DNA of 64,000 nt from Escherichia coli. GTDB lineage: Bacteria; Pseudomonadota; Gammaproteobacteria; Enterobacterales; Enterobacteriaceae. The notes beneath the pieces are model-generated. The model made no database searches. It was not told the DNA's origin and saw nothing but the letters and a program-made list of their open reading frames with translations. The position numbers were made by a program, and so were the translations under genes. This document shows positions 37,097-41,133 of the stretch, piece after piece. Each line of letters opens with the position of its first letter. The first letter of the stretch is position 1. The DNA lies in assembly GCF_044324785.1 (NCBI RefSeq), contig NZ_CP172127.1. One strand, written 5' to 3'.

Positions 37097-38569
37097 ATGT
37101 CCCGAATGGCAGAACAGCAGCTTTATATACATGGTGGTTATACCTCCGCCACCAGCGGTCGCACCTTCGAGACCATTAACCCGGCCAACGGTAACGTGCT
37201 GGCGACCGTGCAGGCCGCCGGGCGTGAGGATGTCGATCGCGCCGTGAAGAGTGCCCAACAGGGGCAAAAAATCTGGGCGGCGATGACCGCTATGGAACGC
37301 TCGCGTATTCTGCGTCGGGCCGTTGATATTCTGCGTGAACGCAATGACGAACTCGCAAAACTGGAAACCCTCGACACCGGAAAAGCGTATTCGGAAACCT
37401 CAACCGTCGATATCGTTACCGGCGCGGACGTGCTCGAGTACTACGCCGGGCTGATCCCGTCGCTGGAAGGCAGCCAGATCCCATTGCGTGAGACGTCATT
37501 TGTCTATACCCGCCGCGAACCGCTGGGCGTAGTGGCAGGGATTGGCGCATGGAACTACCCGATCCAGATTGCCCTGTGGAAATCCGCCCCGGCGCTGGCG
37601 GCAGGCAATGCAATGATTTTCAAACCGAGTGAAGTCACCCCGCTTACCGCGTTAAAGCTGGCCGAAATTTACAGCGAAGCGGGCCTGCCGGACGGTGTAT
37701 TTAACGTGCTGCCGGGCGTAGGTGCGGAAACCGGGCAGTATCTGACCGAGCATCCGGGCATTGCCAAAGTGTCATTTACCGGCGGTGTCGCCAGCGGCAA
37801 AAAAGTGATGGCTAACTCGGCGGCCTCTTCCCTGAAAGAAGTGACCATGGAGCTGGGCGGTAAATCACCGCTGATCGTTTTCGACGATACAGACCTCGAT
37901 CTCGCCGCTGATATCGCCATGATGGCGAACTTCTTCAGCTCCGGTCAGGTGTGTACCAACGGCACCCGCGTCTTCGTTCCGGCGAAATGCAAAGCCGCAT
38001 TTGAACAAAAGATTCTGGCTCGCGTTGAGCGCATTCGCGCGGGCGACGTTTTCGATCCGCAAACTAACTTTGGCCCGCTGGTCAGCTTCCCGCATCGCGA
38101 TAACGTGCTGCGTTACATCGCCAAAGGCAAAGAGGAAGGCGCGCGCGTACTGTGCGGCGGCGATGTACTGAAAGGCGATGGCTTCGATAACGGCGCATGG
38201 GTTGCACCGACCGTGTTCACCGATTGCCGCGACGAAATGACCATCGTGCGCGAAGAGATCTTCGGTCCGGTGATGTCGCTTCTCACTTATGAATCTGAGG
38301 ACGAAGTGATTCGCCGCGCCAATGATACCGACTACGGCCTGGCGGCGGGCATCGTGACGGCGGACCTGAACCGCGCGCATCGCGTCATTCATCAGCTGGA
38401 AGCGGGTATTTGCTGGATCAACACCTGGGGCGAATCCCCTGCTGAGATGCCCGTTGGCGGCTACAAACACTCCGGCATTGGTCGCGAGAACGGCGTGATG
38501 ACGCTCCAGAGTTACACCCAGGTGAAGTCCATCCAGGTTGAGATGGCTAAATTCCAGTCCATATTCTAA
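37097..38569 (+). CDS. betB: betaine aldehyde dehydrogenase
   Basis: ATG 37097 preceded by GAGGA; [15 protein letters not shown]..., 490 aa; aldehyde dehydrogenase catalytic Cys region [11 protein letters not shown] present. Confidence 0.95.
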
Positions 38570-38582
38570 CCAGGAGGTTTAT

Positions 38583-40271
38583 TTGCAATTTGACTACATC
38601 ATTATTGGTGCCGGCTCAGCTGGCAACGTTCTCGCTACCCGTCTGACTGAAGATCCGAACACAACCGTGCTGCTGCTTGAAGCAGGCGGCCCGGACTATC
38701 GCTTTGACTTCCGCACCCAGATGCCCGCCGCGCTGGCATTCCCGCTGCAGGGTAAACGCTACAACTGGGCCTATGAAACGGAGCCCGAACCGTTTATGAA
38801 TAACCGCCGCATGGAGTGCGGACGCGGTAAAGGTCTGGGCGGATCGTCACTGATCAACGGCATGTGCTACATCCGTGGCAATGCGCTGGATCTCGATAAC
38901 TGGGCGCAAGAACCCGGTCTGGAGAACTGGAGCTACCTCGACTGCCTGCCCTACTACCGCAAGGCCGAGACTCGCGATGTGGGCGAGAACGACTACCACG
39001 GCGGTGATGGCCCGGTGAGCGTCACCACCTCCAAACCCGGCGTCAATCCGCTGTTTGAAGCGATGATTGAAGCGGGCGTGCAGGCGGGCTACCCGCGCAC
39101 GGAGGATCTCAACGGTTATCAGCAGGAAGGTTTTGGCCCGATGGATCGCACCGTCACGCCGCATGGCCGTCGCGCCAGCACCGCGCGTGGCTATCTCGAT
39201 CAGGCCAAATCGCGCCCTAACCTGACCATTCGTACTCACGCCATGACCGATCACATCATTTTTGACGGCAAACGCGCGGTGGGCGTCGAGTGGCTGGAAG
39301 GCGACAGCACCATTCCGACCCGCGCGGCGGCGAATAAAGAAGTGCTGTTATGTGCAGGCGCGATTGCTTCACCGCAGATCCTGCAACGCTCCGGCGTCGG
39401 CAACGCTGAACTGCTGGCGGAGTTTGATATTCCGCTGGTGCATGAATTACCTGGCGTCGGCGAAAATCTTCAGGATCACCTGGAGATGTATCTGCAATAT
39501 GAGTGCAAAGAACCGGTTTCCCTCTACCCTGCCCTGCAGTGGTGGAATCAGCCGAAAATCGGTGCGGAGTGGCTGTTTGGCGGCACCGGCGTTGGTGCCA
39601 GCAACCACTTTGAAGCTGGCGGATTTATTCGCAGCCGTGAGGAATTTACGTGGCCGAATATTCAGTACCATTTCCTGCCAGTGGCGATTAACTATAACGG
39701 CTCGAACGCAGTGAAAGAGCACGGCTTCCAGTGCCACGTCGGATCGATGCGCTCGCCAAGCCGTGGGCATGTGCGGATTAAATCCCGCGACCCGCACCAG
39801 CATCCGGGAATTCTGTTTAACTACATGTCGCACGAGCAGGACTGGCAGGAGTTCCGCGACGCAATTCGCATCACCCGCGAGATCATGCATCAACCGGCGC
39901 TGGATCAGTATCGTGGCCGCGAAATCAGCCCCGGTGTCGAATGCCAGACGGATGAGCAGCTCGATGAGTTCGTGCGTAACCACGCCGAAACCGCGTTTCA
40001 TCCGTGCGGTACCTGCAAAATGGGTTATGACGAGATGGCTGTGGTTGACGGCGAAGGCCGCGTACACGGGCTGGAAGGCCTGCGCGTGGTGGATGCGTCA
40101 ATTATGCCGCAAATTATCACCGGCAATTTGAACGCCACGACGATTATGATTGGCGAGAAAATAGCGGATATGATTCGTGGGAAGGAAGCGTTGCCGAGGA
40201 GCACGGCAAGATATTTTGTGGCAAATGGGATGCCAGTAAGAGCGAAAAAAATGAGTCGTGATTTGAACTAA
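38583..40271 (+). CDS. betA: choline dehydrogenase (GMC oxidoreductase)
   Basis: TTG start at 38583 ([14 protein letters not shown]...) 4 nt after AGGAGG; FAD-binding GxGxxG; 562 codons to stop; overlaps betB end. Confidence 0.92.
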
Positions 40272-40289
40272 CTCAGGAACCTATCAGAT

Positions 40290-40350
40290 TGAGAGTTACC
40301 GTTCTACTATGAGGACCGAATCCTTATATAAAACACTGAGGTAACTCTCA
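40290..40350. terminator. long hairpin (11-bp arms tgagagttacc / ggtaactctca, 39-nt spacer) downstream of betA
   Basis: Inverted repeat read in sequence, followed 30 bp later by ggTTTTTTg; possible betA terminator. Confidence 0.3.
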
Positions 40351-40464
40351 TGCTTCATATCCAGTATTCATGATGCTGGTTTTTTGCTGATATTTAACCC
40401 GAACACTCCTGATACAGACTATTAATTCATTTATCTGCGACAGATTTCATTTTCTGGATATATT

Positions 40465-41133
40465 ATGAGTGAACAAATCAAACAGGATATCGATCTGATT
40501 GAGATTTTATTTTATCTGAAGAAAAAGATTCGTGTTATCCTTTTTATTATAGCCATCTGTATGGCAATGGTGCTTTTATTTCTGTATATCAATAAAGATA
40601 ATATAAAAGTGAGTTACAGCCTAAAAATAAACCAGACAACACCAGGCATACTTGTTAACTGTGATAGCAATAATAACTTTGCCTGTCAGACCACAATGAC
40701 TGAAGATGTTATTCAGCGAATTACTACATTTTTTCACACCAGCCCAGATGTCAAGAACAGAGAAATAAAGCTGGAATGGTCAGGAGATAAGAGAGATTTA
40801 CCAACTGCTGAAGCGGAAATATCTCGCGTGCAGGCGTCTATTATCAAATGGTATGCGTCAGAATATCATAATGGCAGGCAAGTTCTCGATGAGATACAAA
40901 CACCTTCAGCAATTAACAGTGAGCTTTATACAAAAATGATATACCTGACCAGGAACTGGTCATTGTATCCGAACGGTGATGGCTGTGTAACTATAAGCTC
41001 ACCAGAAATAAAAAATAAATACCCTGCTGCCATTTGCCTGGCTCTGGGATTTTTTATAAGCATTGTAATTTCTGTAATGTTTTGCCTTGTCAAAAAAATG
41101 GTAGATGAATACCAACAAAACTCTGGGCAGTAA
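40465..41133 (+). CDS. ykgH: uncharacterized inner-membrane protein, AT-rich gene
   Basis: 222-aa ORF with N- and C-terminal hydrophobic segments at the position expected for YkgH. Confidence 0.8.
   Translation: MSEQIKQDIDLIEILFYLKKKIRVILFIIAICMAMVLLFLYINKDNIKVSYSLKINQTTPGILVNCDSNNNFACQTTMTEDVIQRITTFFHTSPDVKNREIKLEWSGDKRDLPTAEAEISRVQASIIKWYASEYHNGRQVLDEIQTPSAINSELYTKMIYLTRNWSLYPNGDGCVTISSPEIKNKYPAAICLALGFFISIVISVMFCLVKKMVDEYQQNSGQ

Follow-up and report, generated by a model that had tools for sequence, protein, structure and literature searches.

The window, a stretch of 64,000 nucleotides of Escherichia coli DNA, carries the bet locus, in which betT is read from the minus strand and betI, betB, betA and ykgH are read from the plus strand; the open reading frames and the RefSeq annotation of the identical locus in strain N3 agree on this order. 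This places betA in its bet operon context (betT divergent; betI-betB-betA). The betA gene occupies 38583..40271 on the plus strand, with a TTG start, 562 sense codons and a TAA stop at 40269-40271; its downstream neighbour ykgH lies at 40465..41133 on the same strand. The same 1689-nt betA coding sequence is annotated by RefSeq in strain N3 and in O157:H7. The predicted protein matches the Pfam domains GMC_oxred_N (PF00732; E 8.6e-63, 212.5 bits) and GMC_oxred_C (PF05199; E 2e-40, 139 bits), both far above the cut-offs, and the second domain ends at residue 523. A GxGxxG FAD fold (IIIGAGSAG, residues 6-14) is present, which together with the domains assigns the protein to the GMC choline dehydrogenases, and the top PDB match is the choline dehydrogenase 9lq0 (1045 bits). 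The betA gene of the window is a normal E. coli choline dehydrogenase gene.

The first-pass annotation placed the betA start at TTG 38583, four nucleotides after AGGAGG. The start holds; the Shine-Dalgarno sequence AGGAGG lies at 38572..38577 on the plus strand, which leaves a spacer of 5 nt rather than 4, and K-12 is identical here. It falls within the 13-nt gap between the betB stop (38567-38569) and the TTG, a distance that suggests translational coupling of betB and betA. The K-12 annotation of b0311 uses this TTG too, and AGGAGGTTTAT precedes it there as well. At the best 80 of 395 BetA relatives, each a species locus, the homologous start codon is TTG in 33 and ATG in 44, and it is always followed by the same Rossmann motif sequence, opening with (Q/E)(F/Y). 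Pseudocitrobacter, Enterobacter, Klebsiella, Raoultella and Citrobacter are among the genera with TTG, and GGAGG is kept at the same upstream position (33 enterobacterial loci); Pantoea, Rosenbergiella and others have ATG. By virtue of the K-12 annotation and this codon comparison, the TTG start of betA is both annotated and supported by comparison. After the upstream in-frame stop at 38523 there is one further in-frame TTG, at 38538. It was rejected as the start, since it lies inside the 3' end of betB and lacks a properly spaced Shine-Dalgarno sequence, and since the ATG of homologues falls at the position of 38583. Literature searches on the betA TTG start returned nothing.

Of 5216 matching E. 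coli records, strain N3 (NZ_CP031609) alone is 100% identical to the window over 38500-40480, and the remaining records reach at most 97.4% identity, a pattern pointing either to a rarely sequenced lineage or to an unusual bet allele. The body of the gene comes nearest to alleles of the B2 type, differing from VTB97074v, CH4811 and E2348/69 at 34-42 positions per 1650 nt. Its last ~40 nt (CCAGTA...A7...GATTTG) are a haplotype otherwise found mostly in O157:H7 records. The combination of a B2-type body and an O157:H7-like end suggests that a short patch at the 3' end is recombinant. K-12 betA (b0311, NP_414845.1) shares with the window the synteny, the TTG, the Shine-Dalgarno sequence and a downstream hairpin and terminator; it differs in having 63 differences in the first 1650 nt, another hairpin loop allele, a run of six instead of seven A's near its end and a stop six codons earlier. 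At the protein level, the BetA of Pseudocitrobacter is surprisingly close for another genus (97% amino acid identity); it was the best match in the genome contig search, in which no Escherichia species stood among the best 80 of the 395 BetA relatives.

Two hairpins follow betA in the gap before ykgH. The first is a perfect inverted repeat with arms of 11 bp, TGAGAGTTACC (40290..40300, plus strand) and GGTAACTCTCA (40340..40350, plus strand), inside which lies a weakly conserved 8-bp stem-loop, UAUGAGGA / UCCUUAUA (40308..40328, plus strand). The 76-nt hairpin region has a folding energy of -26.2 kcal/mol (z = -5.1), which was not equalled by any of 200 shuffles. The second, CCAGTATTCATGATGCTGG with its T6, spans 40361..40385 on the plus strand; its hairpin (40361-40379) consists of eight pairs and a loop of 3 and runs directly into the T6 at 40380-40385, the form of an intrinsic terminator. 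A terminator consensus scan returned 2 sites against 0.2 expected in shuffles. An inverted repeat with 11-bp arms at 40290..40350 and a T-run had both been noticed earlier in this gap, and both are present; the T-run, however, belongs to the separate small terminator and not to the long hairpin, whose arms enclose 39 nt and have no T-run within 2 nt. The small hairpin with its T6 is likely to serve as the betIBA terminator in strains without the PAI-X island described below, and in strains with the island it lies beyond hyxB, on the ykgH side. Published tables of K-12 transcript 3' ends, the one dataset checked, list none in the betA-ykgH gap (PMC7815308). Within the betA coding region, ~60 nt before the stop, there is another terminator-like site (40191-40209; TTGCCGAGGAGCACGGCAA then GATATTTTGT), which is probably a chance match.

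As for the identity of the long hairpin, a cmscan search of 38300-40700 gave no Rfam match at E <= 1, and the K-12 annotation has no repeat feature in the betA-ykgH gap; no match to REP/BIME, ERIC or Rfam elements was found. The answer came from homology to an insertion sequence. Positions 40252..40358 on the plus strand are the degenerate left end of a 1201-bp IS481-family element (BLAST, 77% identity over 110 nt, E 2e-19), window 40251-40359 aligning to IS positions 4-112. This remnant comprises what is left of the terminal repeat, the leader and the first three transposase codons, and it provides betA codons 557-562 and the stop. In a multiple alignment, the TG at 40252-40253 corresponds to the IS terminus and is followed by a 4-nt gap, after which AGTCGTGATTTGAACTAAC matches AGTCGCGACTTGATCTGAC of the terminal repeat; these first bases can be aligned either in this way or with three substitutions, which leaves the junction uncertain by about 4 nt. 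The decayed terminal repeat holds not only codons 557-562 and the TAA of the window but also the TGA of K-12.

At the other end of the remnant, ATG CTT CAT (M L H; 40350..40358, plus strand) is the vestigial transposase start, where the IS homology ends in the window strain. It is all that is left of the transposase at the bet locus; unrelated flanking sequence follows instead of an intact transposase gene, and BLAST against the full-length IS found neither an IS right end nor a target duplication there. Compared with a full-length element, the window thus keeps ~107 nt and has no transposase gene, right end or target duplication, and the former terminal repeat now serves betA as coding sequence and stop codon. 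The vestigial ATG opens a 7-codon reading frame, MLHIQYS* (40350-40373), that runs into the terminator hairpin and is almost certainly meaningless.

Full-length copies of the element were found on E. coli and E. albertii plasmids (e.g. CP099096.1, NZ_CP099872.1) and on 67 phage-like contigs. Ten of the 16 copies with both ends detected measure 1201 bp, with TGT...ACA ends (TGTATTAG...CTAATACA), and the target duplications read at four full-length copies are of 7 bp and AT-rich (TCTTAAT, ATTTACC, AATTAAC, ATTGATT). On NF033577 (cut-off 224), the 346-aa transposase of a full-length copy reaches 293 bits, and it is by DNA homology to the end of an element passing this family model that the remnant belongs to IS481. 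The order in full-length copies is left terminal repeat, ~17 nt, TGAGAGTTACC, 38-39 nt, GGTAACTCTCA, transposase ATG. Terminal repeat, stem, Shine-Dalgarno sequence and ATG CTT CAT of the 1201-bp element, and likewise of a remnant at ylbG, align to 40252-40358, and the arms are identical.

Searched with window 40283-40358, 5341 E. coli genomes contain this sequence in 8284 places, with a median of 2 and a maximum of 9 per genome; 117 places are on plasmids. The K-12 lineage has a second copy immediately before the pseudogene ylbG, whose 122 residues match the IS481 transposase model (E 2e-25). Although annotated only as a 'helix-turn-helix domain-containing protein' pseudogene, ylbG (locus L092, 3001-3430, next to mnmH and an RhsD element) is the first 122 codons of an IS481-family transposase, with terminal repeat and leader hairpin intact upstream. 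On the pINV plasmid of strain RMDEC465 (locus L093, 3001-3035), a half-copy of the leader, with the 3' arm and the transposase start, lies among IS debris by ospZ and ospD3, which implies that the element decays on virulence plasmids too. Literature searches on ylbG and IS481 returned nothing.

The course of events at the bet locus would be as follows. An IS481-family element once jumped into A-rich sequence at the extreme 3' end of betA, and only its left ~107 nt (40252-40358) survive in the window strain. Since the A-run is the host sequence directly flanking the IS end and fits the AT-rich 7-bp target preference, it is likely the 7-bp target of the IS.

The long hairpin is the insertion sequence's own leader stem, with the transposase ribosome-binding site and start codon in its 3' arm. 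In the window, the 3' arm overlaps the vestigial transposase Shine-Dalgarno sequence GAGG (40338-40341) and the A of the ATG; in full-length IS copies, GAGG stands at the start of the 3' arm and the A of the transposase ATG is its last base. Our alignment of 25 distinct copies took in four remnants on the betA side, the one at ylbG and 20 from phage-like contigs, the latter with transposases sharing 70-97% identity with the query. Across these 25 copies, 95.6% of the cells of the 11-pair outer helix are paired. Three outer-helix pairs carry double changes, in two lineages: one from A-U to U-A (L122, L141) and two from A-U to G-C (L129, L130, L134). None of 500 shuffles attained the observed covariation score, and sliding the register always lowered it strongly. 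Support for the inner helix is weak (71% of cells paired in the 25 copies).

In the folds of every lineage the Shine-Dalgarno sequence and the AUG lie in the 3' arm. The modelled stem, kept by covariation, would sequester both, the hallmark of fold-back inhibition. In IS10/Tn10, IS50/Tn5 and IS200, the translation of transposase on read-through transcripts is reportedly inhibited by fold-back of this kind. The IS481-family stem resembles these in that, close to the IS end, a segment further upstream pairs with the ribosome-binding site and start codon of the transposase, a structure conserved through compensatory changes; it differs in belonging to another IS family, in being described here from sequence and folds, in having no internal promoter in a consensus scan and in having no Rfam match. 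In live copies, the stem would block transposase translation on transcripts entering from outside, as in IS10, IS50 and IS200, and we infer by analogy that such a block on read-through transcripts is its function. The consensus scan covered the leader of a live IS copy and found no sigma-70 promoter, so that a native transcript without the 5' arm is unsupported. Literature searches on IS481 leader structures returned nothing.

The same hairpin could in principle have evolved in place as a transcription terminator or 3'-end stabiliser of betA, acting together with the T-run. It lies on the betA strand, only 19 nt after the stop, folds strongly (z = -5.1), and is conserved: ten E. coli alleles from the betA side show no change at the 22 arm positions but variation in 20 of the 91 remaining columns (p = 0.012). 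An origin in place is nevertheless improbable, because live IS481-family copies on plasmids and phage-like contigs carry this stem too, along with its flanks and the transposase start codon, as does the copy upstream of ylbG, and because no T-run directly follows the long stem, the T6 having its own hairpin and lying ~6 kb away in PAI-X strains. Moreover, a similarity search found the sequence absent downstream of betA in 80 other species, on which ground we also rejected the hairpin as a conserved element of the bet operon.

Taking the hairpin as an IS leader stem, the invariance of its arms is unexpected, since nothing obvious would make a dead IS leader preserve its stem. Compared with a live IS, none of the 22 arm positions has changed, against 31 of the 91 others (~34%; p = 4e-4), and the hairpin loop occurs in at least four distinct alleles in the window and nine other E. 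coli alleles. The bet operon may have adopted the stem to stabilise its mRNA or to act on it as a barrier; beside PAI-X, it could for instance shield the 3' end of the betIBA transcript or stop read-through. A bolder version, to which we give a rather low chance, is that the leader stem is an undescribed conserved cis-regulatory RNA, that its dead bet copy is kept for a host purpose and that the A-run acts as a recurrent plus-or-minus-one switch of the BetA C-terminus.

The end of the remnant coincides with the site of a pathogenicity island. PAI-X (ipbA/fimX-hyxR-hyxA-hyxB) is located between ykgH and betA (PMC12928451), and its prevalence has been reported (PMC7545054). About a third of the records match 38500-40480 with an interruption at query 1859/1860, that is window 40358/40359. 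O157:H7 strain 86-24 and VTB97074v have betA and the hairpin followed by ipbA (fimX), hyxR, hyxA, hyxB, the small terminator and ykgH. The island is ~6 kb long and starts directly after 40358 in other strains; the window has the exact island site as a junction only, without the island. At the right end of PAI-X in VTB97074v (locus L005, 6380-6426), just after hyxB and 9 nt before the right junction, there is a strong GC-rich palindrome, CCTGCAGGCAGCAGTATGCTGCCTGCAGG, probably the hyxB terminator.

In all the island-bearing strains examined, the island boundary is 8 nt from the end of the stem, which could mean that the hairpin is the recognition or attachment site of PAI-X integration and the island-free window the ancestral empty site. 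However, in island strains the IS similarity runs on for ~53 nt of DNA past ATGCTTCAT, with weak tblastn matches up to transposase residue 89, which sets the boundary inside the IS gene and not at an attachment site; the junctions, moreover, share no direct repeat beyond 2 nt, and we regard this explanation as very improbable. Because the IS homology continues into the island side, the island-free junction (CTTCAT|ATCCAG, in the window and K-12) would most simply be a ~6-kb deletion with 2-nt microhomology.

The opposite end of the remnant accounts for the length of BetA. The A7 run at 40245..40251 (plus strand) is a polymorphic homopolymer, A6 in K-12, at the junction of native betA and IS-derived DNA. 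The first-pass annotation had described the 562-codon frame as six codons longer at the C-terminus than the 556 aa it gave for K-12, and had suspected that either the 3' end or the downstream junction differs between strains. The frame to TAA 40269 is indeed of that length, and 556 aa is correct for b0311 (NP_414845.1; 325577..327247 complement, 1671 nt), which shares neither the C-terminus nor the length of the window protein. The K-12 tail reads GCG AAA AAA TGA (556 aa); that of the window reads GCG AAA AAA ATG AGT CGT GAT TTG AAC TAA (562 aa, ending MSRDLN). Direct comparison with K-12 identifies A6 versus A7 at 40245-40251 as the sole cause of the length difference. The 3' end thus does differ, but the downstream junction is not the reason: its variation is independent of 556/562, and we rejected a link between A-run length and the presence of PAI-X, as A6 and A7 each occur with and without the island. 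The decayed terminal repeat would supply whatever follows the A-run, namely MSRDLN and TAA after A7 and an immediate TGA after A6.

Both alleles are widespread. The A6 allele (exact 42-mer, K-12 haplotype) occurs in at least 3751 of 5216 E. coli records and the A7 alleles together in at least 728, comprising 346 records of the CCAGTA haplotype (exact 52-mer; that of the window and of most sampled matches from O157:H7) and 382 of the CCGGTG haplotype (exact 52-mer), these counts coming from exact-match probes, none of which matched the remaining ~14% of the records. One flanking haplotype was seen both with A6 (E2348/69, CH4811) and with A7 (VTB97074v), and the A7 of O157:H7 is on another haplotype. 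The occurrence of A6 and A7 on the same haplotype, and of A7 on different ones, means either repeated slippage of the run or its transfer by recombination. BetA ranges from 554 to 569 aa across genera (80 species loci), and the MSRDLN tail lies outside the Pfam domains, past the end of the GMC C-terminal domain at residue 523; from its position, a functional effect of the tail is unlikely. The 556/562 polymorphism is a plus-or-minus-one homopolymer slip at the gene/IS junction that affects only a non-conserved tail.

Homopolymer runs are prone to sequencing error and to slippage, and efficient slippage usually needs runs longer than seven A's. With a difference of one A in a run of 6-7, an assembly error, or production of both forms everywhere by transcriptional or ribosomal slippage, might come to mind, but it is scarcely credible given that A7 is fixed in a haplotype common to 346 records, most of those sampled being O157:H7, that the exact A6 is found in 3751 records from many platforms and that PGAP annotates the 556- and the 562-aa forms both as intact genes without frameshift flags.

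It is highly probable that the tail, the stop and the hairpin of betA all derive from the decayed left end of an IS481-family element, with the A-run slipping at the gene/IS junction and the hairpin being the leader stem of the IS. The gene, its TTG start and both protein lengths were already public; what is new is the slip mechanism at the A-run and the recognition that the hairpin, which borders the PAI-X site, is the leader stem of an IS481-family element. For annotation, this explains why BetA has 556 aa in some E. coli and 562 aa in others, both being real alleles and not errors, and it identifies an IS scar in the K-12 betA-ykgH gap that had not been annotated. As a by-product, a subgroup of the IS481 family gains a covariation-supported leader structure, which could enter RNA family collections. 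The left boundary of PAI-X, an island associated with uropathogens, is fixed inside the IS scar, which suggests that island-free strains have lost the island. Finally, betA is a case of a core metabolic gene that takes its stop codon from the end of an insertion sequence.
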